Positions 2,728-20,948 of a DNA stretch of 24,000 bases are shown here, in pieces. A program made the translations under genes and the position numbers. The notes beneath the pieces are model-generated. The model was not told the origin of the DNA. It saw nothing but the letters and a program-made list of their open reading frames with translations, and did not search any database. This DNA comes from Campylobacter sp. RM5004 (GTDB taxonomy: Bacteria; Campylobacterota; Campylobacteria; Campylobacterales; Campylobacteraceae). How positions within the stretch are numbered: position 1 is the stretch's first letter; every line of letters starts with the position of its first letter. Where the stretch lies: positions 66,409 to 90,408 of the forward strand of contig NZ_CP059599.1 of the NCBI RefSeq assembly GCF_022369455.1, read 5' to 3'.

Positions 2728-2788
2728 AAAAAATACGATTTAAAGGACACAAGATGAAACAAACAAACGAAATTCCGAATTTAAATTC
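2728..2788 (+). repeat. Junction repeat copy: degenerate B (AAAAAATACGATTTAAA) plus submotif A (AAACAAACGAAATTCCGAATTTAAATTC, 2761-2788, 1 mismatch)
   Basis: This is a direct sequence match to the other copies. The ATG of hsdM-A (2754) lies inside the repeat, so A is translated as KQTNEIPNLNS. Confidence 0.8.
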
Positions 2789-4366
2789 TGATATTGAAAC
2801 AATAGAAACCACCGAGCCGACCACAGCGACCGAGCAACAAAAAGCCGAAAAAGAACCGACCACCGAACAAAACCAAACCAACCAAAGCACCGAAGCCACC
2901 CCAACCCCCAAAACCACCACCGCCCAGATAAACGCCAAACTCTGGGACGCGTGCAACACCTTCCGTGGGCTAATGGACGGCAGTGATTACAAAGACTACA
3001 TTCTCACCATGCTATTTATCAAATACCTAAGCGACACCTACACCGAAAAAATCACCGAGCTAAAAGCTGTGGCATCGACTCAGTCTATAAAGCCCTACTA
3101 AATCAACTAGATTTCAAGCTAGAAGAGCACTCAACATTCGCCTACCTACAAGAGCACAAAAACGCCACCAACCTAGGCGAGCTAATCAACACCGCCCTAA
3201 GCAGCCTAGAAACGCTAAACAAAGAAAAGCTAGAAGGCATATTCACCCACATAGATTTCAACAATCCTTCTAAGCTAGGCGACACTCAGCAAAGAAACAC
3301 CACCCTAAAACAGCTCATAAACGACTTTTCAAGCCTTGATTTACGCCCAAGCCGCCTAGAAAACAAAGACATCATAGGCGACGCATACGAGTATCTAATC
3401 GCAAAATTCGCAAGCGATTCAGGCAAAAAGGGCGGCGAGTTTTACACCCCTAGCATGGTGAGCGTCCTACTTGCCGAGCTAGTCGGCATCAAAGACGGCG
3501 AAGAGATATACGACCCTACTTGTGGTTCAGGCTCACTTTTGCTAAAAGCAAGCCAAAAAGGCACAAACAACTTCATCTACGGACAAGAAAAAAACGCCCA
3601 AACCTACGCCCTATGCGTTATGAATATGTTCTTACACAATATCCCAAACCCTAAGATAAAGTGGGGCGACACACTCACAAACCCACTTCACCTAGATGCT
3701 AACGGCGATTTAAGACGCTTTAGCAAAATAGTCGCAAACCCACCTTTTAGCCTTGATAAATGGGGCTATGAAGAGCTAAAGGAAGATAGATTTTCAAGGT
3801 TTAACTACGGTATGCCACCTAAAAGCAAGGGCGATTATGCCTTTTTACTCCACATGATAAAGTCTTTAAAAAACGGCGGAACCTTAGGTGTAGTAATGCC
3901 CCACGGAGTGCTTTTCAGAGGCTCAAGCGAGGGCAAAATAAGGGCAAGTCTTATAAAACAAGGCTACCTAAAAGCCATCATCGGACTTCCAAGCAACCTT
4001 TTTTATGGCACGAGCATACCGGCTTGTATAATGATTTTTAGCAAGGAGCAAAACGAAAAAGTGATTTTCATAGATGCAAGTTCTTGCTATGAAAAAGGCA
4101 AAAACCAAAACACCCTAAAAGACATTGACAAAATCCTAAAAGCCTATCACGGAAACACCGACATAAACGGCTTTTGCAAGGTAGTAAGCCTTGATGAGAT
4201 AGAGCAAAACGACTTCAACCTAAACATACCAAGATATGTAGCAGCAGAAGATGAAACCTTGCAAATTGACTATACCGAACTAAAAGAGCAAATAAACAGC
4301 CTAAACGCCAAGCTAGAACTCTCAAACGCCAAATTACAAGGATACCTAAAGGAGCTAGGATTATGA
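2754..4366 (+). pseudogene. hsdM: Type I R-M DNA methyltransferase subunit HsdM (locus A), disrupted by one frameshift
   Basis: ORF 2754-3101 encodes the HsdM N-terminal domain (LWDACNTFRGLMDGSDYKDYILTMLFIKYLSD) and then hits TAA at 3099-3101. A second frame, open from 2987, continues with YKALLNQLDFKLEEHSTF, GDAYEYLIAKFASDSGKKGGEFYTP, motif I YDPTCGSGSLL and NPPF (3737-3748), up to TGA at 4364-4366. The listed ATG at 3455 is internal. A sequencing error cannot be excluded. Confidence 0.8.
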
Positions 4367-5502
4367 GTATTCCAAAAGGTTGGGAAGAAGTAAGGCTGGG
4401 GGATATTTGTGATAAACTCGGAGATGGCATTCATACTACCCCAAAATACGATGATAATGGGGAGTATTTTTTTATAAACGGCAATAATTTAGAAAATGGC
4501 AAAATAGTTTTCAAAGAAGATACAAAAAGAGCAAGTGAAGAAGAATTTATTAAACATAAAAGAGAGTTAAATGATAGAACAATTCTAGTTTCAATAAACG
4601 GCACTTTGGGAAATGTAGCAACTTATAATAATGAAAAATGTATATTAGGTAAAAGCGCTTGTTATTTTAATGTTTCACAAGGCGTAAGCAAAGAATTTAT
4701 CAAACAAGTTGTAATGCACAGAGATTTTCAAAATTATATAAGACTTTCCGCTACAGGAACAACAATTCCAAATGTTTCGTTGGCTGTAATGAGAACTTAT
4801 AAATTTAAACTCCCACCATTAAAAGAGCAAGAAAAAATCGCTGAGATTTTAAGTAGTTGCGATGAGCATATAAAAAATCTAAAGAATTTGAAATCGGAAT
4901 TAGAAAAAGAAAAACTCCACCTAATGAACGAGCTACTAAGCGGCAAAACCCGTTTTAGTAGCTTCACCACCCCTTGGCAAGAAGTAACTCTCGCCGACAC
5001 TTGCGACATACAAAAAGGGCAACAGCTAAACAAACTTAATTTGCAAGAAAATGGAAAATTCCCCGTAATAAATGGTGGAATAGAGCCATCGGGGTATTAT
5101 GATGAGTTTAACACACAAGAAAATACGATAACCATTAGTGAAGGTGGGAATTCGTGTGGCTATGTTAATTTTTTAACCACTAAATTTTGGAGTGGGGGAC
5201 ATTGTTACACTTTGCAAAATGTAAAAATAGATAATAAATTTTTATATTTTTATTTGAAATATCAAGAAAAAGACATTATGAAATTAAGATTAGGCAGTGG
5301 GTTGCCAAATATTCAAAAAGGCTCAATTTCGGCAGTAATAATAAAATATCCAAGCCTAGAAGAGCAGAAGAAGATAGGGGAAGTCTTAAGTGCGTGTGAT
5401 GAGCGTTTGGAGTGTCTAAACGAGCTAATAACAGCCCAAACCACCCTCAAATCCCACCTCCTCACCGAACTCTTAAGTGGAAATATAAGGGTAAACACCT
5501 AA
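4363..5502 (+). CDS. hsdS: Type I R-M specificity subunit HsdS (locus A)
   Basis: The start overlaps the hsdM stop (ATGA). There are two target-recognition regions separated by conserved helices: LPPLKEQEKIAEILSSCDEHIKNL...LMNELLSGKTRF and YPSLEEQKKIGEVLSACDERLECL...LLTELLSGNIRV. Confidence 0.9.
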   Translation: MSIPKGWEEVRLGDICDKLGDGIHTTPKYDDNGEYFFINGNNLENGKIVFKEDTKRASEEEFIKHKRELNDRTILVSINGTLGNVATYNNEKCILGKSACYFNVSQGVSKEFIKQVVMHRDFQNYIRLSATGTTIPNVSLAVMRTYKFKLPPLKEQEKIAEILSSCDEHIKNLKNLKSELEKEKLHLMNELLSGKTRFSSFTTPWQEVTLADTCDIQKGQQLNKLNLQENGKFPVINGGIEPSGYYDEFNTQENTITISEGGNSCGYVNFLTTKFWSGGHCYTLQNVKIDNKFLYFYLKYQEKDIMKLRLGSGLPNIQKGSISAVIIKYPSLEEQKKIGEVLSACDERLECLNELITAQTTLKSHLLTELLSGNIRVNT

Positions 5503-5597: not shown

Positions 5598-5690
5598 AAA
5601 TTTCGCTTGTTGGTAGAATTTATTTTATGTATTTTCACCCAAACAAACGAAATTCCTATTTTAAATTCCAAAATACACAAAAATAAATTT
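5598..5690. repeat. Junction repeat cluster: inverted A core (5598-5613), inverted B (5616-5635), forward A (5641-5668), forward B variant (5669-5690)
   Basis: GAATTTATTTTATGTATTTT (5616-5635) is the exact reverse complement of the B variant at 8090-8109. The forward A has 3 mismatches to the consensus. Confidence 0.85.
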
Positions 5691-5849
5691 TATTAAATAT
5701 TTATATTATTTATTAAAAATATTTTTTTAATAATTTTCTAGGAAATATGAGCTAGATTTTAAAAATATAAATGTAAAATCGTGGTATTTGTTTTTAAGTT
5801 TTTTATTTTAAAATGTATTATTAAAATATAGGAAGTTATAGGAGAAATA

Positions 5850-7787
5850 ATGTCAGGTTCTTGTAAAACATATTCTACTAAGATTACTCTAAAAAGTCTA
5901 AAATCAACTAATGCAAAGTCAAATGCTATAATTGAAGCTGTTGCAAATTCTATTGATGCAAATAGTAAAAATATATATATTAATCTTCATAAAGAAACCG
6001 GTGACATTTTTGAAACATACTTTTTATGTATTAATGATGATGGGTGTGGTTTTCCTAGTGATGATAAGGAATTTGGCATTGCTCTGTCTGAATTTATGGT
6101 TTCAAATAAAACTAAAGCAAGGTATGGTAAAAAGGGCAAAGGTAGATACGCTTTTGCTCTTGCTACAGACTCACCATTTGAAGATGGGGCTGTTATTTAT
6201 ACAAAAAGAAATAATGGAATAACAAAAATTAGTTTTAAAACAGATGTGAATGGTAATATTGAATTTAATTGTAGTGAAAGTAGTGAAAGTTTTGAAGATA
6301 ATATTGTTACAAGCGTTATTATAAAAGATTTAAATATTAAGCATTTTCATTTTGATAATATTAAAAGTGATGACATTAAAGAATATCTAACCGTTATTAA
6401 ATCAGATATTATTACTTATTTCGCAGATATTATTGCTTCTGATAGTGTAAGTATATATGTAAATGATGAAAAACTAATTATAGATGACTATTTGATAAGT
6501 AAAGCAAGTGAAACGATTATGCTAGAAGAACAAGAATTTAATGTTGATTATTATATTTGGAACGAAGAGATTAAATTAATTGGTGATAGACAAAAACATA
6601 TGCTATTTTTTGATGGTAGTGGTAGTTTGGTTGCAAAACGACCTTCGGGAGTTGAAAAGGTTGATTGTATAGATTATAAACAGTGTCATACAGCAATTAT
6701 TAAAAGTCAATATCTTAGTGAAATACAAGATGAAATTTTTGATGAGCAGATTTTGATGTCAGATGATATATTAATAAAGCTTTGTAGACAAATAACTTTA
6801 AAATTAAAAGAATTACTTAGGCAAGAATATTTAAAGACCTATAATGTTTCAGTGAATGATTATATCGCAAGAATGGATGTTAAGGTTAAGTTAGATGATA
6901 CAACAGATACAGTTTATAATGCTTTATTAAATCCATTTGTTGAAAAATTTTATGGTAAAAAAATTGGAGATAATTTAAAAACTATTGTTGCAAGACTAAT
7001 TAAGGTTATGATAAATACAAGCTCAGATGAATATTTGGATAATCTTAAGTATATTTTAGATTTAAACGACGAGCAAATAAAAAAATTTGATTATGTTAAT
7101 AAAAATGTAGGGATAATAAAACTTGTTAACAAATATGAAAAATATATTTTAAGGCTTGATTTTTTAAATCATTTTGAAAAAATTGTTTATGGAGAAGAAA
7201 GGCAATATATAAAAGAAAGGACAATGCTTCATAAAGTTGTTGAAAAGAATTTATGGATAATAAATGAAGAGTATGAAACTGTTTCTAAAGAAAATATCAA
7301 TAGTGACGAATCAATAAAGCGTATTATAAAAACAAATAATTTTTTTTCTAGCGATAGTATTAAGTTAGATGAAATTGTTTCTAAAGAAAATATTAGTCTA
7401 GATAAAATACCTGATATTTTTATAACATTTAAAAAAGATAAAGAAATACACATTATTGAATTAAAACGACCTATTGTCAATATAAATCTTGGCATACTTA
7501 GAGAAGTTGAAGATAAATATACAAATGCATTCAATACGCTTTCTCAAGAATATGGCGAAGAAGTAACTATAAAGGCTATGGCAATTTCATCTGAACTTAA
7601 AGATATGACAAAGGATAAAATCATAAAAGACAAAGGGTATGTTATACAGCCAAACACTTGGAGAAATTTAATTAATGGTGCTAGAGATGTATTAGCTCAA
7701 AAATTAGAAAAATTAGACAAGCAAATTAAGCATAGTCAATGGAATGAAATAAAAGAGTTCTTAAGAGATTATGGAGCTAAGGTATAA
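5850..7787 (+). CDS. GHKL (Bergerat-fold) ATPase fused to a C-terminal PD-(D/E)xK nuclease-like domain; function unknown, candidate defence protein
   Basis: The 645-aa ORF has an RBS AGGAG (5840-5844). GHKL motifs appear in order: IEAVANSIDA (E29/N33/D36, nt 5934-5960), DDGCGF (nt 6036-6053) and the Gly-rich YGKKGKGRYAF. The C-terminal motif is IPDIFITF...IHIIELKRP (D522, E537, K539; nt 7410-7466). The gene is markedly AT-rich. Confidence 0.65.
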   Translation: MSGSCKTYSTKITLKSLKSTNAKSNAIIEAVANSIDANSKNIYINLHKETGDIFETYFLCINDDGCGFPSDDKEFGIALSEFMVSNKTKARYGKKGKGRYAFALATDSPFEDGAVIYTKRNNGITKISFKTDVNGNIEFNCSESSESFEDNIVTSVIIKDLNIKHFHFDNIKSDDIKEYLTVIKSDIITYFADIIASDSVSIYVNDEKLIIDDYLISKASETIMLEEQEFNVDYYIWNEEIKLIGDRQKHMLFFDGSGSLVAKRPSGVEKVDCIDYKQCHTAIIKSQYLSEIQDEIFDEQILMSDDILIKLCRQITLKLKELLRQEYLKTYNVSVNDYIARMDVKVKLDDTTDTVYNALLNPFVEKFYGKKIGDNLKTIVARLIKVMINTSSDEYLDNLKYILDLNDEQIKKFDYVNKNVGIIKLVNKYEKYILRLDFLNHFEKIVYGEERQYIKERTMLHKVVEKNLWIINEEYETVSKENINSDESIKRIIKTNNFFSSDSIKLDEIVSKENISLDKIPDIFITFKKDKEIHIIELKRPIVNINLGILREVEDKYTNAFNTLSQEYGEEVTIKAMAISSELKDMTKDKIIKDKGYVIQPNTWRNLINGARDVLAQKLEKLDKQIKHSQWNEIKEFLRDYGAKV

Positions 7788-7812: not shown

Positions 7813-8446
7813 CCAAACAAACGAAATTCACTCTCGGAAAATTACAAACCATCAAAGAATTTAAAATCAGAATTTCGTTTGTTGGGGTGCTTGATTTACG
7901 CTGTAGAATTTAACAGCGTAAATTACTAATCTTAAACCTCAAAATACACAAGATAAATTCCTAAACAATAAAAACTTATACACCCCAAGATACAAGCCCA
8001 AAGCAAGGTTAAAAAACAAAAAATAAAAAAGTTTCGATTGTTTGTAACTCTATGCCAAGATTTATCAAAACAAAACCTACCCAAAGCCTAAAATACATAA
8101 AATAAATTCTTTAAACAAACGAAATTCCGAATTCAAATTCCAAATACGCAAATAAATTTCAAGCTGTAAATTTCGTTTGTTTGGTAATTTTATGCAGAAA
8201 TTTATGGCTTTTAGCCAAACAATCGAAACTTATTTAAAAAGTATCAAAATCACAAAGAATTTAAAATCAGAATTTCGTTTGTTTGTAGCTTTGTAAGGTT
8301 ATTTAAGGGTATTTATAAACAAACGAAATTCCGAATTCAAATTCCAAATACGAAAATAAATTCCAAGCTTTAAATCTCAAAATACGATATAAAATTCCAC
8401 AAAAATACACAGATTAAATTCTAAAAAATACACGAAATAAATTCCC
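7813..8446. repeat. Gene-free array of junction repeats (A and B submotifs in both orientations)
   Basis: Forward A cores are at 7814-7829, 8113-8140, 8215-8229 (variant) and 8317-8344. Inverted A cores are at 7870-7885, 8031-8044 (variant), 8168-8184 and 8270-8285. B units are at 7941-7961, 8090-8109, 8141-8160, 8345-8364, 8379-8398, 8402-8421 and 8425-8445. An identical 31-mer occurs at 7853-7883 and 8253-8283. Confidence 0.9.
7895..7922. other. Perfect 10-bp stem / 8-nt loop hairpin (TTTACGCTGT-AGAATTTA-ACAGCGTAAA)
   Basis: A direct inverted repeat in the sequence. It lies inside the repeat array, ~110 nt after the 5850-7787 stop codon. Confidence 0.6.
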
Positions 8447-8524: not shown

Positions 8525-11399
8525 ATGGATTTTAGTATAGAAAGCAATGTAAAAGCGTATTTTATAGAGACTTTAAAGGATTTGGGCTGGCAGTATCTAA
8601 GCGAAAAAGAATGCAACGAGCTTAGGCAAAACGACTTTAACGAACCTTTGCTTTTAGCTAAGCTTAAGGAGTTTTTAAGGACAAATTATCAGCTAAATGA
8701 TGATGAGCTCATCATAATGATAAACAAGCTAAAAGCCCCAATTACCAGCCTAATCACAGCCAACGAAACCATCACAAAGCTTATTTTACTTGGCGAAGGC
8801 TTAGAGCAAAAAGGCAAACCTTCAAGGCATATAAACTACATAGATTACGAAAATCCGTCTAAAAACTCATTCATAATCACAGAAGAATTTAGCCTTACAA
8901 ACGCCAAAAACGAGCAAAAGAAAAGCACTAGGATTGATTTGGTGTTGTTTGTAAATGGTATCCCGCTTGTTAGCATTGAGCTTAAAAACTCGTGCGTTGG
9001 AGCAGCTGAAGCGATAAACCAACTCCTAAACCACCAGCACCCAGATAGGATTGAGAACTTTTATAAGTTCATTCAGCTTTGCGTTGCAAGTTGTGGCACT
9101 ATCACTAAATACGGCACAACGCTAACGCCTAGCAAATTTTACAATGTCTTTAAGGATAAAAGCAACGATGATAGCGTAAAAGTGCTTTGTAACAATATCT
9201 TAAAGCCTAGAAATTTGCTTGAGTTTATAAGTGATTTTATATTTTTTAGCAAGTCTAAAGACAAAACTAACAAAATCGCAAGCCGTTATCAACAATACTT
9301 TGGCATAAAAGAAGTGATAAAAGCTATCAAAGATAAGCACGGCGGTCTAGTATGGCACACTCAAGGCAGTGGCAAAAGCTACACAATGCTAATGCTAGTA
9401 AATATCCTAGCTAGACTAAACAGCACAGCCCAAAAAATCATCATCACAGATAGAATAGAACTAGATGAGCAAATCTCAGCGACCATAAACGGCACGGCAA
9501 ATCTTGACACCTTGCACCACGCCAAAAACACAAGCCATTTAAACGAGCTTTTAAACGATGATGGAGTGGGGCTTATCACGACTACGATTTTTAAATTTAG
9601 CGATTTAAAAGATATAAAAAATAGAACAAGATTTATCCTAATAGATGAAGCCCACAGAAGCCAAAACGGCGAACTTCATATGCAAATGCTTGATAACTTA
9701 GGCGAAAATGCCTACATCATAGCATTTACAGGAACGCCGCTTTTATCTAAAGAAAAATCAAGCATAGCAAAATACGGCGGACTTTTGCATACTTATAATA
9801 TCGGCGAAGCAGTAGAAGATGGTGCTATCGTGCCACTTTTGTATGAAAACAAAATGATAGAGCTTGGTCTTAGCAATAAAGAAGAGCTAGAAAAAAGATT
9901 TGATGAGCTTACGCTTGGGCTTAGTAACGAGCAAAAAGAGCAAATCAAGCAAAAATGGGCGAAGATTAAAAAAGCTTCATACTTCAATTTCAAGGCTTGA
10001 ATACATCGCACTTGATATAAACGAAGACTTTAAACAAAGCCTTAAAAATACGCCGTTTAACGCAATGCTTGCAACTAATTCTAAGTTTGAGGCGATGAAA
10101 TATTATAAAGTTTTTAAAGAACTTGGGGATTTGGAAGTTAGGGTCGTGATATCCACAAATGCAGCAGATGAAAACGAAGGCGAGCAAGAAAAATGGGTAA
10201 GCGATGAGTATGCAAAGCTAAATCACGCAGAGTATGAAGAGCAGTGCAAGAGTGATTTTAAGGATAGGAAAGTGGATTTGCTAATCGTGGTAGATAAGCT
10301 ACTTACGGGCTTTGACGCTCCTTGTGCTAAAAAACTTTATATAGATAAAAACCTAAAAGAACACAACCTACTTCAAGCCATAGCAAGGGTAAATAGGCTA
10401 AAAGAGGGCAAAGATGAAGGGATAATCGTGGATTATAGAGGGCTTCTTAGTGAGCTTGATACCACGCTTAGTAGATACGACGCGCTTAGTGGATATGATG
10501 AGAGTGGTTTGGTGGGGGCAGTTTTTAAAATAGACGGCTCTTTAGATGATATGTGGGAGAGCCTAGCTGTGCTTGATGAGATGTTTGCAGGGCTTGATGA
10601 TGAAGTAGAAAAGCTAAAGGTTTTAAAAGATTTATCGTTTAGGGATAGGTTTTGCAAGGTTTTAGCAAGGTTTAGCAACCTTGTGGGCGTGGTGCTAAAT
10701 ACTCGTAAGCTAAGGGTAAGTTTAAGCGAGAATGAAAGGGAGAAAATCAAGGCAAGTCTTAAAAAATACTTAAGCTTAAGAAGTTCGGCACAGGTATTTT
10801 ATGCTGAGGATTTTAGCCTAAAAGAATACGAGCAAAGTATGCAAAAGCTACTAGATGAGCATTTAAAAGTAGGGCAAATTTATACGCTAAATGAACCGCT
10901 TGATATACTAAGCGATGATTTTTCAAGGGTTGCGGGTGATTTTAGCGATGAGGTGAAGGCTCATGGAAAGCTAAACGCACTAGAAAAAGAAGTGAAAAAA
11001 TGTGAAGTGTTTAACCCTGATATGTTTGAAAGGTTTAGTGCAAGGATAGAAGAGATTTTGGAAGATTATAGGGCAAAAAGGCTTAGCGAGAGCGAGTTTT
11101 ATAAGCTTAGTTGTGATTTGGCTAGGGATTTTAAAAAGGATTTGACAGATGACCCACTTGAGCGTAATCTTGCTAGGGATTTTGACAAGGATGATGTTGG
11201 GCAAATCATTGCCTTGCTTGATAGTGAGTTTGGCAAGTTTTCTAATGTGCCTGAATTTGATGAAAGTATCAAAAACAAAATCGCAACCGAACTCATAGTA
11301 AAAATGCTACCATTTTTAACAAAAATTAACAAAGTAAATGACATAGAAAACTACATAAACTCCCTAATCAAAATCTACTTAGGAAAATATGGTAGATAG
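8525..11399 (+). pseudogene. hsdR: Type I R-M restriction/helicase subunit HsdR (locus A), split by one frameshift
   Basis: ORF 8525-10000 carries the nuclease motif DLVLFVNGIPLVSIELKN and helicase motifs VWHTQGSGKSYTM, ILIDEAHRSQ and FTGTPL. ORF 9900-11399, in another frame, carries LLIVVDKLLTGFDAPCAKKLYIDK and QAIARVNR. Both frames are open across 9900-10000. Removing one A from the A6 run (9968-9973) gives a continuous ...KWAKIKKLHTSISRLEYIALDI.... Confidence 0.8.
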
Positions 11400-11677: not shown

Positions 11678-12643
11678 ATGAAAGAAAATCGAGATAGTAG
11701 CTTCTTATCGAATGCCCAAAAAGCAATTAGTATGATTGGGCAAGTGGTTCAAAATTTGGTTATAGTGCTAGTATTTTTATGGTTCATTAGTTCAGTTATT
11801 TTATATTGCAAACATTATGTCTTTGGGATTGAAGATTTTCCTGATTTCAGTATGGAAGAATTATTGGCATTAGGTTTTCATGTTGGTGCATGGTTGATGC
11901 TATTACTCTTTGTACCTCTTGGATGTTATTTGTTTGCAGTTACTTATTCGAAAATTACCAAACAAGATTGTGATAAAATAACTGATAATAAAACCTCTAA
12001 ATGTGAATATTGGGCAATGATAAAATCTAATTTTATCATTGTATTTAATTCAATACCTTATATAGCTACATTTATTACTGCAATTATATGCATATTGTTA
12101 TCAGCATATCTAGCTTATGAGTTTAAGGATAAGCAAGTTTGTTATACACTAATATTTTGTTTAATTTATAGTGTATTATTTATATTTGCTCGTAGTGGTA
12201 AGTTTAAAATATCAATTGCAATTTTAATAATTATTGCTTATTTTATATTTACATATATAAATATTATGGGTAGAGCAGGGATTGGCAATTATTATGCTAA
12301 CATTATTATTGAAACAGCTACACTTGATAGAGTTTATTTAAATCAAAAGGGTATAGAATTCCAAGATGACAATATATGCGAAGAAGGTAAAAAAGATAAA
12401 AATACTCAAGAAGAAAAGCAACCAATATCAGAAAATACTTCAAAAGAAAACACTACAAAAGAGATTAAAGATGTATATTGTGTAGATAAAAATATTATAA
12501 GATTTGATAACGCAAAAGTTTTATCAAGTATAGGTAAAAAAACATTTTTAGAATATAAAGTTAATGATAAAGCTATAAAATTAAATTTTGATAGTTCAAA
12601 AGTAAGGTTTGTAAAGAAACAAAATACCCCAATAGAGAATTAA
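11678..12643 (+). CDS. Polytopic membrane protein of unknown function (paralogue of 20948-22039)
   Basis: The 321-aa ORF has an RBS AAGGAG. It has multiple hydrophobic helices, a K/E/N/T-rich linker and a small C-terminal domain (IIRFDNAKVLSSIGKKTFLEY...VRFVKK). I recognise no family. Confidence 0.6.
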   Translation: MKENRDSSFLSNAQKAISMIGQVVQNLVIVLVFLWFISSVILYCKHYVFGIEDFPDFSMEELLALGFHVGAWLMLLLFVPLGCYLFAVTYSKITKQDCDKITDNKTSKCEYWAMIKSNFIIVFNSIPYIATFITAIICILLSAYLAYEFKDKQVCYTLIFCLIYSVLFIFARSGKFKISIAILIIIAYFIFTYINIMGRAGIGNYYANIIIETATLDRVYLNQKGIEFQDDNICEEGKKDKNTQEEKQPISENTSKENTTKEIKDVYCVDKNIIRFDNAKVLSSIGKKTFLEYKVNDKAIKLNFDSSKVRFVKKQNTPIEN

Positions 12644-12730: not shown

Positions 12731-14236
12731 ATGGCAAAGAAAGTAGAAATTAAACTAGAAGATGCGTTGTGGAAAAGTGCCGATAAATTACGCAAAAACA
12801 TCGATGCAGCAGAGTATAAACACATAGTTTTAGGACTTATATTTTTACGCTACATTAGCGATAGCTTCATGCAAAAATACGAAGAATTACTCAAAGAACA
12901 ATCCGAAGGAGCCGACCCAGAAGATGCAGACGAATACCTAGCTGACAATATCTTTTTTGTCCCAGAAAAATCTCGCTACAACTACATAAGAGATAACGCC
13001 AAAAACCCCAAAATAGGCAAAATGTTAGATGAAGCAATGGATGAGATAGAAAAACACAACGATACCTTAAAAGGAGTTTTGCCAAAAGTCTATGCTAAAG
13101 ACAATCTAGATAGCAAATGCCTAGGCGAACTCATAGACCTGATAGGCAACATCGCCTTTGATACTGGTAAAAGTGCTGATGTTTTAGGTCATGTATTTGA
13201 GTATTTTTTAGGTGAGTTTGCCCTAGCTGAAGGCAAACAAGGCGGACAATTCTACACTCCAAAATGCGTCGTAGAACTCCTAGTAGCCATGCTTGAGCCA
13301 TACAAGGGCAGGGTGTTTGACCCTTGCTGTGGAAGTGGCGGTATGTTTGTTCAAAGCGAAGAGTTCGTAAAATCTCGCCAAGGCAGACTAGATGACATCT
13401 CAATCTATGGTCAAGAGTCAAATCAGACCACCTACAAACTCGCCAAAATGAACCTAGCCATAAGAAAAATTGAAAGCTCACAAGTGATATGGAACAACGA
13501 AGGCTCATTTTTAAACGACGCCCACCAAGACCTAAAAGCTGATTTTATCATAGCCAACCCACCATTTAACGACTCAGACTGGAGCGGCGAACAGCTAGAG
13601 CAAGACGGCAGATGGAAATACGGCGTCCCACCAGCAAGTAACGCCAACTACGCTTGGATACAGCACTTTTTATATCATCTATCGCCAAACGGCGGTGTAG
13701 CAGGATTTGTCCTAGCTAAAGGCGCACTTACAAGCAATACCACAAATGAAGCAGCTATTAGAAAAGCACTCATTGAAGATGATTTGATAGATTGTATAGT
13801 AAATCTACCCGCAAAGCTGTTTTTAAACACAGGTATCCCCGCATCACTTTGGTTTATAAGACGCCAAAAGCTACCAAACACAGCTAAAAAGACGCTTTTT
13901 ATAGATGCAAGAGATTTAGGAACTATGATAAATAGACGCAACAAAACCCTAAACAAAGATGACATAAACCAAATCGCAAACACTTATAAAGCTTGGAAAA
14001 ACGGCACCGACTATGAAGACATAAAAGGCTTTTGTAAAAGTGCTAGCATAGATGAGATAAGAGAGCTTTCTTATGTGCTTACCCCAGGGCGTTATGTGGG
14101 GCTTGCTGATAGTGATGATGAGTTTGATTTTGATACTAGATTTAACGAGCTTTTAACCAAGCTAAAATCCCAAATCAAAACCGAGCAAGAGTTAAGCGAA
14201 ACTATCTTAAAAAACTTAGAGAAGATTAGAATATAA
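12731..14236 (+). CDS. hsdM: Type I R-M DNA methyltransferase subunit HsdM (locus B)
   Basis: The 501-aa ORF has an RBS AAGGA. The HsdM N-domain is LWKSADKLRKNIDAAEYKHIVLGLIFLRYISDSF. It also has GGQFYTP, motif I FDPCCGSGGMF and motif IV NPPF (13556-13567). Confidence 0.93.
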   Translation: MAKKVEIKLEDALWKSADKLRKNIDAAEYKHIVLGLIFLRYISDSFMQKYEELLKEQSEGADPEDADEYLADNIFFVPEKSRYNYIRDNAKNPKIGKMLDEAMDEIEKHNDTLKGVLPKVYAKDNLDSKCLGELIDLIGNIAFDTGKSADVLGHVFEYFLGEFALAEGKQGGQFYTPKCVVELLVAMLEPYKGRVFDPCCGSGGMFVQSEEFVKSRQGRLDDISIYGQESNQTTYKLAKMNLAIRKIESSQVIWNNEGSFLNDAHQDLKADFIIANPPFNDSDWSGEQLEQDGRWKYGVPPASNANYAWIQHFLYHLSPNGGVAGFVLAKGALTSNTTNEAAIRKALIEDDLIDCIVNLPAKLFLNTGIPASLWFIRRQKLPNTAKKTLFIDARDLGTMINRRNKTLNKDDINQIANTYKAWKNGTDYEDIKGFCKSASIDEIRELSYVLTPGRYVGLADSDDEFDFDTRFNELLTKLKSQIKTEQELSETILKNLEKIRI

Positions 14237-14244
14237 GGATAGCT

Positions 14245-15696
14245 ATGAATTTTGAGTTTATACAAAAATTATTAGAAGCAAAAACGCAAGAAAATGAAGT
14301 GGTTGAATATAAACAAAACAATAAAGAGATAAATACATTGGCAAAAAATATTTCAGCTTTATCAAATACAGCTGCTTTGCTAGGAATTGATAAAGCTTAT
14401 CTTGTTTTTGGCATTGAAGATAAAACATTAAAGATTGTCGGCACGAAATTTAAACCTAAAAAAGAAAAAAAAGGAAATGAAGAGCTTGAGAGTTGGTTGC
14501 ATAAAGCTTTAACACCTAACATAGAATTTACAATTCATGAAATTTCTAAAGACGAGATTAATTTAGTAGTATTTGAAATTGATGCTACTAAAATTTCGCC
14601 AATAAAATTTGAAGAAAAAGCCTATATAAGAATAGGTAGCAATACAAAACAATTAGATAAATATCCAGAAAAAGAGAAAAAGTTATGGCAAGTTCTTTCA
14701 GGCTTTTCTTTTGAGACTGAAATAGCAAAGTCAAATTTAAATATTGATGATATATATGATTTGTTAGATTGTCAAAAATGTTTAAATATGTTAAAAATAC
14801 CTTACAATGACAATGTATCTCATGATTATGTTATTGAAAATTTGATTAAATTGGAGTTGGTAAAAAAAATAAATAATTCTTTTGCTATTACTAATTTAGG
14901 TGCTATTTTATTTGCAAGAGATTTAACAAAATTTGAAAGCCTAGATAGAAAAAGAATTAGATTTATAAGATATAAAGGCAAAGGTAAAATTGATGCATTA
15001 GAAGAATTAGAAGGTAAGAAAGGATATGCAATTGGTTTTAAAGGGTTGATTTCGTATATAATGAAATATGTTCCTAAAAATGAAGTTATAGAGAATGCGA
15101 TAAGAAAAGACACTACTTTATATCCAGAAATTGCGATAAGAGAACTTGTAGCTAATGCGATAATTCATCAAGATTTTACAATAGATGGTAGAAATCCAAT
15201 GATTGAAATGTATAGCGATAGAATAGAGATAACAAACAATGGAAAATCTCTCATAGATATCAAACGCTTAATAGATATGCCATCAAAGTCAAGGAACGAT
15301 AAACTAGCTAACCTAATGAGAATAATGGGTATATGTGAAGAAAGAGGATCTGGTGTGGATAAGGTTATAGATAGTGTTGAATTTTATCAATTGCCAGCAC
15401 CAGAATTTACAAATGACGGGGATTATTTTCAGGCAATTTTATTTTCCTATATGCCTTTAGAGGATATGACTAAACAAGATAGAATAAGAGCTACTTATCA
15501 GCATTGTTGTTTAAAATGGGCTTCAAGGGATGTGATGACAAACGCTAGTTTAAGAGCTAGATTTAAAATAGGCGACAAACAACACTCAAAAGCTTCTAAA
15601 ATAATCAGTGATACTTTAGAGGTGGGTTTGATTAAACAACAAGACCCAGAGAACAAATCTACAAAACATACCAAATATGTTCCATATTTTGTTTAG
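14245..15696 (+). CDS. AlbA_2 (Schlafen-like DNA-binding) + HATPase_c_4-like protein of the so-called RecG-like/transcriptional-regulator family; hsd-embedded passenger
   Basis: The 483-aa ORF starts 8 nt after the hsdM-B stop and has an RBS AAGGA. The N-terminus has EVVEYKQNNKE...ISALSNTAALLGIDKAYLVFGIEDKT. The C-terminus has IRELVANAIIHQDFTIDGRNPMIEMYSDRIEITNNG and SRNDKLANLMRIMGICEERGSGVDKV. The assignment is from motif memory. Confidence 0.65.
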   Translation: MNFEFIQKLLEAKTQENEVVEYKQNNKEINTLAKNISALSNTAALLGIDKAYLVFGIEDKTLKIVGTKFKPKKEKKGNEELESWLHKALTPNIEFTIHEISKDEINLVVFEIDATKISPIKFEEKAYIRIGSNTKQLDKYPEKEKKLWQVLSGFSFETEIAKSNLNIDDIYDLLDCQKCLNMLKIPYNDNVSHDYVIENLIKLELVKKINNSFAITNLGAILFARDLTKFESLDRKRIRFIRYKGKGKIDALEELEGKKGYAIGFKGLISYIMKYVPKNEVIENAIRKDTTLYPEIAIRELVANAIIHQDFTIDGRNPMIEMYSDRIEITNNGKSLIDIKRLIDMPSKSRNDKLANLMRIMGICEERGSGVDKVIDSVEFYQLPAPEFTNDGDYFQAILFSYMPLEDMTKQDRIRATYQHCCLKWASRDVMTNASLRARFKIGDKQHSKASKIISDTLEVGLIKQQDPENKSTKHTKYVPYFV

Positions 15697-15707
15697 GTTT
15701 TATGTTA

Positions 15708-15827
15708 TGCTTTCGTCAAAATTACTTAAACCTAGCTTAATTTATACAGCTCACAGCTTGAAAATACGAGCTTTTAGCGTTTTTTCTTCTGTTGTGCTTT
15801 CGTCATTATCTTTTAAACCAAGCTTAA
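15708..15827 (+). repeat. Pair of 33-bp imperfect direct repeats (TGCTTTCGTCA-N9-AAACC-N-AGCTTAA) 87 bp apart
   Basis: The copies are at 15708-15740 and 15795-15827, with 27/33 identical positions. The first begins 12 nt after the 14245-15696 stop. The second abuts the junction repeat. Confidence 0.7.
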
Positions 15828-15877
15828 ACAAACGAAATTCCGAATTCAAATTCTTGAATTTATTTCGTGTATTTTTT
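15826..15877. repeat. Junction repeat copy: exact forward A (15826-15853) followed by exact inverted B (15856-15875)
   Basis: The 28-mer is identical to 8113-8140 and 8317-8344. It lies inside the hsd-B operon, in the 218-bp spacer upstream of hsdS-B. Confidence 0.9.
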
Positions 15878-15914
15878 GGATTTTTTATGGAAATAAATTC
15901 TAAAGGATTAAGAT

Positions 15915-17114
15915 ATGAATAATTGGAAAAAATGTAAGCTTGGGGATGCCCCATTAGAATTTATAGACGGAGATAGGGGCAAGAACTATCCAAAACAAAA
16001 TGAATTTCATTCTAATGAATACTGCTTATTTTTAAGCACTAAAAATGTAAGAGAGAATGGTTTTGATTTTAGCGAATGTCAGTTTATTACCAAAGAAAAA
16101 GATGAGATTTTAAAAAAAGGTAAGTTAAAAATCAATGATTTAGTTTTAACCACAAGGGGAACTATCGGAAATCTAGCATTATATAAAGAAAATATATCTT
16201 ATAAAAATATAAGAATAAACTCGGGAATGCTTATAATTAGACCAAATAATGAAGAGTTGGATAGCAGATATGCGTTTTATCTTTTTAAAAATTTAAAAGA
16301 TGAATTTGATAATTTTGTTTCTGGGAGTGCTCAACCACAGCTACCTATTAGAGATTTAAAAGAAGTTGAAATTACACTACCACCACTAGAAGAGCAAAGG
16401 CAAATCGCTGCTATTTTAAGTAGTATTGATGACAAGATAGAGCTACTACACGAGCAAAACAAAACCCTGGAAGAACTCGCCCAAACTCTTTTTAGACACT
16501 ATTTCATAGAAAACCCAAACCCATCTTGGCAAGAAAAACCATTGAGTGATTTTGGCAATATAATTTGTGGAAAAACTCCATCAAAAAAGGTTAATGAGTA
16601 TTACAATGGAGATATTCCATTTATTAAAATTCCTGATATGCACGGAAATATTTTTGTGTTTAAAACAAATGAGTATTTATCCGAGCTAGGCTCACAAACT
16701 CAAATAAATAAATTAATCCCAAAAAAGAGTATTTGCGTCAGCTGTATAGCTACGGTTGGCGTGGTATCTATGAATGCTTTTGAAAGTTATACAAATCAGC
16801 AAATAAACTCTATCGTTCCTAAAAAAGAGCATTATAGATATTTTCTTTATTTGTATATGAAACATTTGTATGATTATTTGCAAAGTATGGCAAGTGGTGG
16901 CACGGCAACGGCTAATTTAAATACAAGGGATTTTTCAAATATTCATATTTTAATGCCAGATGAAGAAATTATGATAAATTTTAATGGTAAAACAAGTGAG
17001 TATTTTGACAAAATATTTAAAAATTTAGAACAAATCCAAACCTTAGAAAATATGCGTGATATACTTATACCAAAACTCCTAAACGGAGAAATAAAAGTAG
17101 GTGGTAATCAATGA
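15915..17114 (+). CDS. hsdS: Type I R-M specificity subunit HsdS (locus B)
   Basis: The 399-aa ORF has an RBS AAGGA and two TRDs. The central conserved helix is LPPLEEQRQIAAILSSIDDKIELLHEQNKTLEELAQTLFRHYF and the C-terminal conserved helix is LENMRDILIPKLLNGEIKV. Confidence 0.9.
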   Translation: MNNWKKCKLGDAPLEFIDGDRGKNYPKQNEFHSNEYCLFLSTKNVRENGFDFSECQFITKEKDEILKKGKLKINDLVLTTRGTIGNLALYKENISYKNIRINSGMLIIRPNNEELDSRYAFYLFKNLKDEFDNFVSGSAQPQLPIRDLKEVEITLPPLEEQRQIAAILSSIDDKIELLHEQNKTLEELAQTLFRHYFIENPNPSWQEKPLSDFGNIICGKTPSKKVNEYYNGDIPFIKIPDMHGNIFVFKTNEYLSELGSQTQINKLIPKKSICVSCIATVGVVSMNAFESYTNQQINSIVPKKEHYRYFLYLYMKHLYDYLQSMASGGTATANLNTRDFSNIHILMPDEEIMINFNGKTSEYFDKIFKNLEQIQTLENMRDILIPKLLNGEIKVGGNQ

Positions 17115-17689
17115 ATTTTGATTTAAGTGAATTTTTAAAGTATTTTAAAAGTTTATTTTCTGTTGCATTTGCTGTTTTGATAGCTGGGGTTATCTTGCTA
17201 AGCTTTGAAGATTTTTTAGGAAAATTTTTAGGGATAGAAGAATTGCTAAATAATTATAAAGGCATATTAGGTTTAGCAGTGTTTCTATCTTTTATAATTG
17301 TTTTAGCAAAAGCATTTGAACAGATTGTTGTTTTTTATAAAGATATAAAGAAAAAAAGAGATTTGCAAAATAAATATAACAATAAAAAATCAGCCTATAA
17401 AAATACTTTAATAAATCTAAAACTAGATGAAAAAATGTTGCTTATGGAATTTTTATGCGATGAAACAGGTATGATAAGAATTGATTTTGATTTCAATAGA
17501 TATGATGGGATAGACAGAGTTGTAACTTTTTTAACTACAAGAAAAATAATATATCTAGCATGTAATGAGTATATTAGTGGTATTTATAAGATTGATAAGC
17601 TTTATTTTGAAATAATGCAAGAAAATCCAAAAGAAATATTTTACGAAGATGAATTTAAAGAATACTTTATAGAAGAAAAGGAGAGTTAA
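17111..17689 (+). CDS. Small two-TM membrane protein, possibly SieB (superinfection exclusion B)-like; hsd-embedded passenger
   Basis: The 192-aa ORF has an ATG that overlaps the hsdS-B stop (ATGA), and its own stop lies 1 nt before the hsdR-B ATG. Two hydrophobic helices (LFSVAFAVLIAGVILLSF, ILGLAVFLSFIIVLAKAF) are followed by a basic coil and a soluble tail (LDEKMLLMEFLCDETGMIRIDF). The SieB resemblance is from memory of the family layout only. Confidence 0.6.
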   Translation: MNFDLSEFLKYFKSLFSVAFAVLIAGVILLSFEDFLGKFLGIEELLNNYKGILGLAVFLSFIIVLAKAFEQIVVFYKDIKKKRDLQNKYNNKKSAYKNTLINLKLDEKMLLMEFLCDETGMIRIDFDFNRYDGIDRVVTFLTTRKIIYLACNEYISGIYKIDKLYFEIMQENPKEIFYEDEFKEYFIEEKES

Positions 17690-17690
17690 A

Positions 17691-20600
17691 ATGAGCAAGG
17701 CGAAGACTAGCGAGTTTGATTTGGAGCAGTTTGTCATATCATCACTGCTTGAGCATGGGTGGTGCTATGAAAAGCCTATAAGAGCTACCGATGAAGTCTT
17801 GCTAGAAACTAGCCTTATAAATGCACTTTGTAGGCTAAATCCACAGCTTGATTTATCAAAAGCTAATGAGATTTATAAAGAGTTAAAAAGCATAAATCAT
17901 CTTAGCCTTTTAGATAGTAACGAAAACTTTCATTATAAGCTTGTAAATGGCGTAAATATAAGCACCACAAAAGACGGCGAAAGTAGAGCCGATATCATAA
18001 ATCTAATTGATTTTGATAATGTAAGCAACAATGAATTTATAGTAACAAACCAGCTAAGTATCACAGAAGCTAAAGAAAACAAAATCCCCGATGTAGTGCT
18101 ATACATAAATGGAATTCCACTTGTTTTAATGGAGCTAAAAAGCCCAAGTGATGAAAACGCCACGATAAACTCAGCCTATAATCAAATAAACACTTATAAA
18201 CAAGCAATCCCAAGTATTTTTGTCTACAATGCTTTTTGTGTGATAAGCGATGGGTATTTTGCTAGGGCGGGGAGTATTTCGGCTGATTTTTCAAGGTTTA
18301 TGGCGTGGAAAAGTAGCGACGGGATAAACTACGCTCCAAACAAGTCTTTAGAGATAAAAACCCTAATAGATGGTATGCTAAACCCAAAAACCTTGCTAGA
18401 TATCATTTGCAATTTTATAGTTTTTGAAAAAGAGCAGATAAAGGATATAAACGATATTTTGAGCATAAAAACTACCAAAAAAATCGCAGCCTATCATCAA
18501 TACTACGCAGTAAATAAAGCTATTAGTAGAACAATCACGGCAAGCAGCAAAGACGGAGACAAAAAAGGCGGCGTGGTATGGCATACGCAAGGTAGTGGGA
18601 AGTCTTTGTCTATGGTGTTTTATAGTGCTAAAGCGATAAAGGCTTTAAACAATCCTACGATTTTGGTTATCACGGATAGAAATGACTTAGATGACCAGCT
18701 TTTTGGCACTTTTGCAAGTTGTGCGAACCTTTTAAGACAAGAGCCAAAACAAGCAAACGATAAAGAGCATTTAAAAGAGCTTTTAAAGGTGGCTAGTGGT
18801 GGAGTGGTATTTACTACTATTCAAAAATTTAGCCCAGAAAATGACAATGTATTTGAGTGCTTATCGCTTAGGGATAATATCATCGTGATTGCAGATGAAG
18901 CACACAGAACCCAATATGGCTTTGATGCAAAAGTAGTAGAAGAAAAGTCAAAAAGTGGCGATGTGCTAGGGCAAAAGATAGTCTATGGTTTCGCAAAATA
19001 TTTGCGTGATGCTTTGCCAAATGCTACTTATATAGGATTTACAGGGACACCTATTGAAAGCCATGATGTAAATACCCCTGCAGTTTTTGGAAACTACATA
19101 GATATATATGATATATCAAGAGCTGTTGAAGATGGTGCTACTGTGAGTATATACTATGAAAGCAGACTTGCTAAAATAGAGCTAAGCGAAGAAGGAAAAA
19201 AGCTCATAGATGAACTAGATGAAAAGCTTGAAAATCAAGAAAACGAAAAAGCAAAAGCTACCAAGCTAGAAGCAGTAGTGGGTAGCACAAGCAGACTAAA
19301 ACAAATCGCTAAAGATATAGTAGAACACTTTGAGGCAAGGTCTAGTAAGCTCGGCGGAAAAGGTATGATAGTAAGTATAAGCCGAAGTGTAGCTATAAAG
19401 CTATATGATGAAATTATAAAAATAAGACCAAACTGGCATAGCGATGAGCTAAATATCGGGGCTATAAAAGTAGTGATGACTTCAAGCTCTAGCGATGGAG
19501 CAGAGTTCAGCAAACATCACACAAGCAAGGCTCAAAAGCAGTTTTTGGCAAATCGTATGAGAGATATAAACGATGAGCTAAAGCTTGTTATCGTGGTGGA
19601 TATGTGGCTAACTGGCTTTGATGTGCCATCGCTTCATACTCTTTATATAGATAAGCCTATGAAAGGGCATAACCTAATGCAAGCGATAGCTAGGGTAAAT
19701 AGGGTTTATAAGGATAAACCTAGTGGGCTTGTGGTGGATTATCTTGGGATTGCAAGTGATTTGAAAAAGGCTTTATCGTTTTATAGTGAAAGTGGTGGCA
19801 AGGGCGATATAGTAACCACTCAAGAAGACGCTGTAAAGGTGATGATAGAAAAGCTAGAGATTGTAGAGCAAATGCTACCAAATGACTATGAAAGATATTT
19901 TGAGCTTGATACTGGGGCTAGGCTTGATTATATCCTTGATGTAGAAGAGCATATATTATCAAATGAAAATGGCAAAGATAGGTTTATGAGCGAGTTTGCA
20001 AGGCTTGATAAAGCCTATACGATAGCTATACCGCACGAAAAAGCCTTGAGTATAAAGGATAAAATCGCTTTTATGTATGCGATAAAGGCTAGATTTTTAA
20101 AGTTTGCTAGGGTAAATGAGAGTGAAAACTCGCTTAATCAAACTTTGATAAAACAAGTGGTAGATAAGGCTATCGTATCATCTAGTGTGGTGGATATTTT
20201 TGATGCTAGTGGGATAAAAAAGCCTGATATATCTATACTTTCTGATGAGTTTTTGCTAGAAGTAAAGAATATGAAGCGTAAAAACTTAGCCTTTGAAATG
20301 CTAAAAAAGATACTAAACGATGAGATAAAATTAAGGCAAAAACTAAGCCTAACAAAGACTAAAAAACTAGCCGAAATGCTAAACGAGGCTATCAAAAAAT
20401 ATAACAATAAGCTAATCTCATCAAGCGAGGCACTAGATGAGCTAATAAATATGAGTAAAAGCATAGCAAGTATGGATGATGAGGCTAAAAAACTAGGGCT
20501 AAAAGACTATGAATACGCTTTTTACTCAGCACTTGCTTGTAATGATGAGTATGAAAAAATCTTAGGAAATGAAAAGCTTTTAGCCCTTGTTAGCGAGATA

Positions 20601-20815: not shown

Positions 20816-20948
20816 GGAATTTGAAATAGGAATTTAAAAGTAAATTTCGTTTGTTTAAGGAATTTATTTCGTGTATTTTTGGCTAGGTTTTATTGTGAAA
20901 TCCTAACCCAAAGTGGTGTCAAACAAACGAAATTCCGAGTTTAAATTC
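20816..20948. repeat. Junction repeat cluster between convergent genes: inverted A (20816-20856), exact inverted B (20860-20879), forward A (20921-20948, 2 mismatches)
   Basis: These are direct matches to the other copies. The forward A ends at the stop codon of the - strand gene. Confidence 0.85.

Follow-up and report, generated by a model that had tools for sequence, protein, structure and literature searches.

A probable GHKL-headed, Shedu-like defence nuclease encoded between hsdS and hsdR of a disrupted type I restriction-modification locus in Campylobacter sp. RM5004

The stretch of DNA analysed here, referred to as the window in the following, comprises 24,000 nucleotides of Campylobacter sp. 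RM5004 (RefSeq assembly GCF_022369455.1, contig NZ_CP059599.1, positions 66,409–90,408 of the forward strand). The first of its type I restriction-modification (R-M) loci has an intact hsdS gene (4363–5502) and is decaying, as an initial annotation made from the sequence had recognized: both hsdM (2754–3101 and 3455–4366) and hsdR (8525–10000 and 9900–11399) are split. Between hsdS and hsdR, separated from its neighbours by repeat-filled gaps of 347 nt and 737 nt, lies the gene that is the subject of this study. It encodes a protein of 645 residues, which combines an ATPase domain of the GHKL type with a predicted nuclease domain. The features of the gene are as follows (coordinates refer to the window, in which position 1 is the first nucleotide).

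5840..5844, + strand: Shine-Dalgarno-like AGGAG, 5 nt before the ATG (read from the sequence)
5850..7787, + strand: coding sequence, stop codon included, of the 645-aa GHKL ATPase / S5-like / PD-(D/E)xK nuclease protein (open reading frame (ORF), Pfam, homologues, profile alignment)
5907..6344, + strand: GHKL (Bergerat-fold) ATPase domain, ~aa 20–165 (Pfam HATPase_c_3, conservation, fold matches to TopoVI-B, MORC and GyrB)
5934..5960 and 6036..6050, + strand: GHKL motif I, E29-x3-N33-x2-D36-A, and motif II, D63xGxG67; followed by the conserved K87
6126..6146, + strand: GHKL lid G93..G96xG98R99; followed by motif IV, T154
6357..6734, + strand: transducer/S5-like β-rich domain, ~aa 170–295, up to the near-invariant S286-x-Y/F (AlphaFold2, Foldseek, hhalign against VcSduA)
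6735..7199, + strand: all-helical linker or arm, ~aa 296–450 (AlphaFold2 model; aligns with its counterpart in the VcSduA family)
7200..7724, + strand: predicted RecB-like PD-(D/E)xK nuclease domain, ~aa 451–625 (conservation, AlphaFold2, sub-threshold Pfam matches, weak Foldseek matches)
7215..7217, 7413..7415, 7458..7460 and 7464..7466, + strand: candidate catalytic residues E456, D522, E537 and K539; after the ExK follow P541 and a Q/E552...Y557 helix motif

The ATG opens a single intact frame of 645 codons, which, at a G+C content of 26%, is not a product of chance. The Bergerat motifs are located where the initial annotation had placed them, including DDGCGF (6036–6053) and the glycine-rich YGKKGKGRYAF (6123–6155); further downstream, the frame encodes LHKVVEKNLWIINEEYE (7227–7277) and IPD522...IIE537LK539RP (7407–7472). 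The exact protein was not found in a collection of 15 billion proteins. That the gene is transcribed as a monocistronic unit, as had been suggested, is plausible from the wide gaps on either side, but a consensus scan revealed no terminator, and promoter-like sites were no more frequent than in shuffled sequences. The gene had also been described as much more A+T-rich than the flanking hsd genes, and the underlying counts (12/60 G+C in 6361–6420 against 30/60 in 2821–2880) are exact. However, while the G+C content of the gene (25.9%) is indeed lower than that of the hsd genes (34–46%), it falls within the range of the other non-hsd genes of the window (23–30%; whole window, 31.8%). The contrast is thus one of G+C-rich hsd core genes, rather than of an unusually A+T-rich GHKL-nuclease gene, and we rejected low G+C content as a mark of foreign origin for this gene alone.

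The ATPase domain is recognized by the Pfam model HATPase_c_3, which covers aa 25–105 (E = 2.1e-10; 41.2 bits versus a cut-off of 25). In an AlphaFold2 model of the full-length protein, which is of moderate confidence (predicted local distance difference test, pLDDT, 76.6), the chain is divided into four parts: an α/β GHKL part (~20–165), a β-rich part (~170–295), an all-helical part (~296–450) and an α/β part (~451–625). Foldseek matches this model in the PDB to the ATPase modules of TopoVI-B, MORC3/MORC4, yeast Topo II, GyrB-43K, ParE and SMCHD1 (E = 2.5e-8 to 1e-5) over 360–530 columns, corresponding to GHKL plus transducer; for the TopoVI-B, MORC3/4 and GyrB-43K structures, 378–532 columns are aligned. 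Because the alignments span both domains, the middle region appears to start with an S5/transducer-like domain, which is typical of DNA-handling GHKL enzymes. Consequently, the roughly 330 residues in which no motif had been noticed at first are not featureless: based on AlphaFold2, Foldseek and hhalign, they consist of a transducer/S5-like domain and a helical linker.

The C-terminal 221 residues (aa 425–645) were modelled separately with AlphaFold2, using an alignment of 30 sequences, and yielded a pLDDT of 92.9 and a predicted template modelling score (pTM) of 0.85. In this model, a helix carries E456, one strand begins with D522 and the strand after it contains E537-x-K539, so that the predicted arrangement is the canonical PD-(D/E)xK layout. 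On the following helix, most family members have a Q-x3-Y motif, whereas the clade of the window protein instead features E552 and one extra residue; this Q...Y motif fits the RecB-like character described by Iyer et al. (2008). Fold matches of the nuclease-domain model are all weak (E = 0.01–0.5), and most are to PD-(D/E)xK nucleases, namely McrC, Nt.BspD6I, arenavirus cap-snatching endonucleases, the R2 endonuclease, Card1 and SgrAI in the PDB, and Cas4, Mrr and further PD-(D/E)xK proteins in BFVD. The top PDB match, the N-terminal domain of YqgP, was rejected as meaningless (root-mean-square deviation 15 Å, TM-score ~0.3).

The window protein has ~40 full-length homologues with 35–42% sequence identity. 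A profile search with the family retrieved 823 clusters, defined at 50% identity, with an E-value cut-off of 1e-3; a cut-off of 1e-10 leaves 389. Almost all of these proteins are 640–700 residues long and match from end to end, in one fixed architecture. The family is represented in Campylobacter, Aliarcobacter, Sulfuricurvum, Nautiliales, Actinobacillus, Vibrio, Bacteroidales, Lentisphaeria and Treponema. Searches of plasmids and phages with tblastn were uninformative, with one weak partial match each (a Paracoccus yeei plasmid and Pasteurella phage Pmp3). For an analysis of conservation, we aligned the window protein with 74 family members, which are 16–42% identical to it. In these 75 sequences, N33, R99, W469, D522, E537, K539, P541 and W604 are invariant, and E29, A37, D63, G65, G67, K87, G96, G98, S286, L405, E456, F471, D486 and Y557 are conserved in ≥90%. 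As these positions include the ATP site as well as the E-D-ExK site, both sites are under family-wide constraint. The C-terminal PD-(D/E)xK arrangement that had been read from the single sequence is therefore borne out at the level of the family, in which all four candidate catalytic residues are invariant or nearly so.

This architecture is not new. It is that of paraMORC3, which Iyer, Abhiman and Aravind (2008, Biol Direct 3:8; PMC2292703) defined by a GHKL domain, an S5 domain and a C-terminal restriction endonuclease (RE) fold with an E-D-ExK signature and RecB-like character, and which, according to their survey, spreads laterally and has a patchy distribution among proteobacteria and Bacteroidetes, in part with links to R-M systems and in part as standalone genes. 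Later, Gu et al. (2023; bioRxiv 10.1101/2023.08.10.552793) counted proteins with a HATPase_c_3 head and a GHKL-associated middle domain among the type 1D (I-D) Shedu homologues. Finally, VcSduA (A1552VC_00276), a GHKL-Shedu protein from the WASA lineage of Vibrio cholerae, was validated as a single-gene anti-phage system (Adams et al., 2025, Nat Microbiol; PMC12137116). It defends E. coli from Drexlerviridae and V. cholerae from phage X29, functions alone after transfer to E. coli, and loses its defence activity upon mutation of either the ATPase (E27A) or the nuclease (K557A); its protection was non-abortive and of comparable robustness at all tested multiplicities of infection, and the authors describe a direct restriction that preserves host viability (PMC12137116). 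The initial view of the window gene as the best candidate for something not yet characterized is therefore superseded.

To relate the window protein to VcSduA, we used residues 1–399 of the latter, obtained from the preprint supplement, together with two listed homologues for a scan of viral contigs, which led to 23 loci on viral or prophage contigs of IMG/VR; close VcSduA relatives are common on such contigs. One of the encoded proteins (L026; 673 aa) is 89% identical to VcSduA over residues 1–399 and has the equivalent of K557 in the motif VEIKRP. A profile of the VcSduA family, built from 15 sequences of these viral-contig relatives, was then aligned with the 75-sequence profile of the window family in hhalign. 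The alignment has a probability of 99.9% and an E-value of 4.9e-31 and extends over 570 columns (residues 18–634 versus 18–674); the N-terminal part alone yields E = 6e-17 over 290 columns. The two families are in register at motif I, DxGxG, the GxGR lid, the S-x-Y/F end of the S5 domain, an ER..LH helix, NLW, SD, PD, VE(L/I)KRP and Q..Y. E29 and K539 of the window protein, both conserved in its family, align with E27 and K557 of VcSduA. Given a full-length profile alignment at an identity of only 13–18% between the two profiles, we regard the window protein as a bona fide homologue in a separate subfamily.

Because of this end-to-end homology to a validated family, with the catalytic residues in register, we consider it likely that the gene encodes a self-contained, ATP-dependent defence nuclease of the paraMORC3, or GHKL-headed Shedu type I-D, class; for the details of its action, our confidence is lower. 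The basis of this assignment comprises the intact ORF, its motifs and predicted folds, the conservation of both active sites, the homology to VcSduA, the genomic contexts and purifying selection. The idea that it might be an ATP-gated, single-gene defence nuclease, possibly a GHKL-headed variant of Shedu, had already been put forward in the initial annotation and gains support from the profile alignment. Mechanistically, the GHKL domains of two protomers would bind ATP and dimerize, as in MutL, MORC, GyrB and TopoVI-B, while the transducer/S5-like domain and the helical arm might clamp the DNA. The ATP-driven conformational cycle would then license the RecB-like domain, with its putative active site of E456, D522, E537 and K539, to cleave the DNA of incoming phages or plasmids. 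If VcSduA is a guide, such cutting would presumably spare the host. We infer both the activity of the window protein and its ability to discriminate foreign DNA.

Several observations weigh against this assignment. The identity between the two families is so low that the function could have diverged, and a pairwise BLASTP comparison of the window protein with VcSduA(1–399) is not significant. Furthermore, VcSduA has been assayed for defence, whereas the window protein is known from its sequence and predicted models. A Pfam search with the window protein returned no nuclease family, and SduA_C (PF14082) was not found at E ≤ 1; likewise, PADLOC (v2), which had been suggested as a check, returned no match. 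Solved Shedu structures are missing from the 50 best PDB fold matches of the nuclease model, which are all weak, and no conserved transducer lysine was identified across the 75-sequence alignment. One of the genomic contexts described below (L009) has no defence neighbours. Finally, the type I locus of the window is broken and the nearest orthologue, in C. jejuni, is frameshifted, so the cassette may be on its way out in Campylobacter.

Part of this discrepancy lies in the detection tools. The profile and structure checks that had been proposed recovered the GHKL fold clearly, in Pfam as well as in Foldseek, but the nuclease only through sub-threshold or weak matches. When we searched 30 nuclease domains of the family against Pfam, HSDR_N_2 was matched below threshold by 21 of them (best E = 1.7e-6; at most 22.4 bits versus a cut-off of 25), VRR_NUC by six, SduA_C by four (best E = 2.5e-4), and PDDEXK_9 and Cas4 by a few. 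In the precomputed Pfam annotation of the homologues, no match to PF14082 was found in any. The PADLOC model for SduA, PDLC00391, matches three of the 30 C-terminal domains (best E = 1.2e-4), and there are further single matches. SduA is thus the only defence family that is repeatedly matched by these nuclease domains, although the SduA matches are limited to the helix bearing the first glutamate. The resemblance to DUF4263/SduA noted in the initial annotation is therefore visible in the family, but not as a direct DUF4263 match of the window protein, and we rejected a classification as a clear DUF4263 domain by Pfam criteria.

The relatives of the validated VcSduA fare no better, so that the missing DUF4263 match of the window protein speaks neither for nor against its place among the GHKL-headed Shedu proteins. 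Five of the VcSduA relatives (L026, L037, L039, L043 and L047) were tested: none of them matches SduA_C in Pfam or any SduA model of PADLOC, and HATPase_c_3 is barely or not matched, never above threshold. Standard hmmscan-based annotation would therefore miss the validated VcSduA family, and since PADLOC v2 and the Pfam Shedu model overlook the window family as well, current counts of Shedu-type systems are underestimates. A different kind of PADLOC match was obtained for the GHKL heads of two distant members, P0054 and P0090, whose first ~100 residues match the 'REase_II' models PDLC03419 and PDLC03485 (E = 2.6e-16 and 1.9e-12); this suggests that REBASE-derived sets of type II enzymes contain GHKL-headed proteins.

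Sequence searches of the PDB retrieved only chance matches for the single protein and nothing at E ≤ 10 for the nuclease-domain profile. With the full-length profile, weak matches to the ATP sites of MutL and MORC proteins appeared (Mlh1/MutL, E = 0.02–0.07), and in NCBIfam, apart from a far-sub-threshold match to the ATP site of sacsin, the MutL model TIGR00585 was matched with E = 6e-4. These matches bring to mind a housekeeping repair or recombination factor, i.e. a MutL/MORC-like ATPase with an endonuclease of its own. The combination of GHKL, S5 and nuclease domains also follows the logic of MutL, and a repair role has been raised for those paraMORC3 proteins that are not linked to R-M systems (PMC2292703). 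We nonetheless find such a role very improbable: the MutL score is 18.8 bits at a cut-off of 180 and concerns residues 25–74, i.e. ~50 residues of the ATP site; the distribution of the family is sporadic and tied to mobile elements and R-M genes, with a pseudogene in C. jejuni; and the homologous VcSduA is a defence protein (PMC12137116).

The genomic neighbourhoods of the relatives, for which we surveyed ~18 independent readable contexts as the initial annotation had recommended, point to defence: many members reside in or beside R-M genes or mobile elements. In four cases, the gene is located between hsdS and hsdR on the same strand, namely in the window, in two uncultured epsilonproteobacteria-like contigs (L004, L005/6) and in Actinobacillus porcitonsillarum (L024/25), the protein of which comes from a remote family branch with ~20% identity. 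Apart from the window, these arrangements are tight, with overlaps of 14 nt and 4 nt in L004 and of 14 nt in L005, and with gaps of 28 nt and 9 nt in L024. In two further cases (L010/11 and L014), the gene directly follows hsdR, and in V. alginolyticus (L021), within an island bounded by an integrase, its immediate predecessor is a type III res gene. Other members adjoin an integrase, an AAA_21/OLD-TOPRIM pair and a type I system (L007), occupy the tail end of a P2-like prophage at three chromosomal sites with three different left flanks (L001–3), or stand alone beside transposases (L049–54). In L013 and L016–18, the neighbours are uninformative.

The recurrence of the slot between hsdS and hsdR, at 20–40% identity and in unrelated hosts, raises the question whether the nuclease is coupled to the type I system that surrounds it. 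It could, for instance, guard HsdMSR and become active once this complex is disabled by an anti-restriction factor of a phage, comparable to the anticodon nuclease PrrC, which EcoprrI keeps latent, or it could be an additional ATP-driven nuclease that uses HsdM/HsdS methylation as a self mark. The overlaps and short gaps, the positions right after hsdR or res, and the proposal by Iyer et al. that paraMORCs act within R-M systems (PMC2292703) are in line with such a partnership. Yet many members are found alone by transposases, an integrase or the end of a prophage, with no R-M gene within 7–10 kb, there are no hsd genes in L016–18, and VcSduA suffices alone in E. coli (PMC12137116). In the window itself, hsdM and hsdR are disrupted, while the GHKL-nuclease gene is intact and set off by its repeat-filled spacers. 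Moreover, the same slots hold unrelated passengers, i.e. DUF1016 and AAA_13 proteins elsewhere and AlbA_2/HATPase_c_4 and SieB-like proteins in the second locus of the window, which argues for a hotspot and not for a partnership. Coupling to the host R-M system is therefore a rather unlikely explanation for the window gene. The more general proposal, that the whole subfamily functionally extends type I R-M systems, being transcribed together with hsdS and hsdR from the position between them and acting either as a guard or through methylation as a self mark, is in our view unlikely, too; if true, Shedu-type nucleases would gain an epigenetic targeting mode, which has not yet been described. Instead, the contexts agree with a defence gene that is mobile and self-sufficient and frequently inserts into R-M operons, with which it is co-transcribed, and we would interpret the site between hsdS and hsdR most readily as a preferred place for passenger defence genes to land and be co-expressed.

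The spacers that set off the gene contain a repeat, which the initial annotation had correctly seen on both sides. Its 15-mer core, CAAACAAACGAAATT, has 17 copies in the window, where 0.32 are expected (2760, 5599/5640, 7814/7871, 8030, 8112/8169, 8216/8271, 8316, 11433/11457, 15825, 20843/20920 and 23352). Most of them form inverted pairs with spacers of ~10–60 nt and are located at the gene junctions of both hsd loci. The gene itself is bracketed by a 33-nt inverted pair, with the left arm at 5636–5668 and the right arm at 7857–7889, within the following elements.

5599..5668, no strand assigned: upstream inverted-repeat element (AATTTCGCTTGTTGG ... CCAAACAAACGAAATT); hairpin with a folding free energy (ΔG) of −14.8 kcal/mol, z −3.5
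7813..7889, no strand assigned: downstream inverted-repeat element (CCAAACAAACGAAATTC, 40 nt, GAATTTCGTTTGTTGGG); repeat and folding analysis

The repeat could be a terminator-like hairpin, an element similar to repetitive extragenic palindromes (REP) or miniature inverted-repeat transposable elements (MITE), or a recombination junction for the exchange of cassettes. An Rfam scan of the whole window returned no match, and the repeat is not accompanied by a transposase or integrase in the window. Since almost every gene junction of the two hsd loci has a copy, the bracketing of the gene may be incidental. The pair at 11433/11457 forms a perfect 17-bp stem (ΔG −24.3 kcal/mol, z −7), and another copy lies within the first codons of the broken hsdM (2760–2774). 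The N-terminus of this broken hsdM (2754–2960) has an unusual low-complexity extension of ~55 residues, rich in T, E, Q and P (...TEPTTATEQQKAEKEPTTEQNQTNQSTEATPTPKTTTAQ...), before the HsdM_N domain.

The nearest relative of the gene is found in C. jejuni (L019 9365–11296, GCA_047181925.1), with 84% identity at the protein and 88% at the DNA level. Deletions of 4 bp and 2 bp put approximately residues 50–205 of this copy out of frame and break its GHKL domain, and it is annotated only as a C-terminal 'hypothetical protein' of 431 aa (30 sequences on eight contigs). Its context is different, as it is preceded by an N6_N4 methylase/ResIII pair (a DNA-methylase fragment) and followed by a C-terminal remnant of hsdR; the CAAACAAACGAAATT pair seen at 11433/11457 is likewise found upstream (L019 9129/9155). 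Together with the split hsdM and hsdR genes and the inverted pair around the gene in the window, these broken copies could be taken to mean that we are looking at a decaying or selfish cassette with no current benefit for the host, a remnant between inverted repeats that is possibly kept only as an addictive or mobile nuclease. We assign little probability to this scenario. The ORF in the window is full-length and has all its catalytic residues, and the ratio of nonsynonymous to synonymous substitution rates (dN/dS) between the two copies, 0.21 over 431 codons, indicates that the gene was under constraint until recently, over most of the divergence. The repeat, in turn, has no transposase or integrase in the window and is by no means specific to this gene.

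As to the other genes of the window, a second type I locus (12731–20786) follows in tandem and appears to be intact, with hsdM at 12731–14236, hsdS at 15915–17114 and hsdR at 17691–20786. Its two passengers are an AlbA_2 (Schlafen-like) and HATPase_c_4 protein (14245–15696), of a type that is also encoded in the V. alginolyticus island with a family member, and a small SieB-like membrane protein (17111–17689). Directly upstream of the first hsd locus, 697–2640 encodes a protein of 647 aa with N-terminal segments that look transmembrane and a marginal match to KAP-family P-loop NTPases (E = 4.8e-4), which may be another defence-island gene. Behind each hsdR lies a gene whose product is a multi-pass membrane protein with no Pfam match (11678–12643, + strand; 20948–21724, − strand); these two proteins are weak paralogues (23% identity, E = 6e-5) with the shared C-terminal motif ...LS(S/T)(I/L)G...V(R/E)FVKK.

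Three aspects of these results reach beyond the single gene: the existence of a large subfamily that is invisible to PADLOC v2 and to the Pfam nuclease models, its repeated insertion into the space between hsdS and hsdR in distant hosts, a finding absent from the 2008 survey, and the repeat element at nearly all junctions of the two hsd loci. The family of ~800 clusters, whose members are now called 'ATP-binding protein' or 'hypothetical protein', can be annotated as GHKL-Shedu/paraMORC3 defence nucleases. In Campylobacter, it represents a candidate barrier to the uptake of phages and plasmids within the variable hsd loci. Furthermore, the repeated hsdS-X-hsdR placement offers a handle on the question whether the passenger nucleases of type I loci are merely co-located or functionally coupled.

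Among the known systems, the window protein is distinct from MutL and MORC proper, as its MutL score is far below the cut-off and its C-terminus is instead a predicted PD-(D/E)xK domain, and from type I HsdR, since its similarity to HSDR_N_2 remains below threshold and the Pfam search revealed no helicase domain. With regard to location, it resembles the rlo/prrC/rloC passengers, which are likewise unrelated, defence-type genes between hsdS and hsdR; Miller and colleagues are said to have described, in 2005, such unrelated rlo passengers in Campylobacter type I R-M loci. PrrC and RloC, however, are anticodon nucleases that combine an ABC-ATPase with a HEPN-like domain and have no sequence relationship to the window protein. 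Canonical Shedu (SduA, DUF4263/PF14082; Bacillus cereus, E. coli) is also a single-protein PD-(D/E)xK nuclease under a variable N-terminal domain, but it has no ATPase and forms a tetramer (bioRxiv 10.1101/2023.08.10.552793), whereas the window protein starts with an ATPase and lacks a PF14082 match.

By contrast, every defining feature of paraMORC3 is matched by the window protein, i.e. the GHKL motifs, the S5 domain (in a predicted model of moderate confidence), the RE fold with E-D-ExK and the patchy distribution, an assignment that follows the published definition and not a list of members. The slot between hsdS and hsdR is absent from the 2008 account, which stresses links to superfamily II helicases and type III-like systems or the lack of a conserved neighbourhood (PMC2292703). 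With VcSduA, a GHKL-headed Shedu of type I-D, the window protein shares full-length homology, the catalytic glutamate and lysine, the length class (673 versus 645 aa), the order of GHKL, S5-like, helical and E-D-ExK nuclease domains, the proline after ExK and the Q...Y helix; each is encoded by a single gene that resides in a defence island or on a mobile element. They differ in the details of their ATP sites, with ExxxNxxDA and GKKGKGRY in the window protein versus EAVxNSIHS and KGCRGVGRL in VcSduA, in that HATPase_c_3 is well matched by the window family and barely or not by VcSduA-like proteins, and in their surroundings, as VcSduA adjoins GrwAB in VSP-II, whereas the window subfamily recurs inside type I R-M operons, between hsdS and hsdR. 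Taken together, we see in the window protein a diverged representative of a defence class that is already known and validated.

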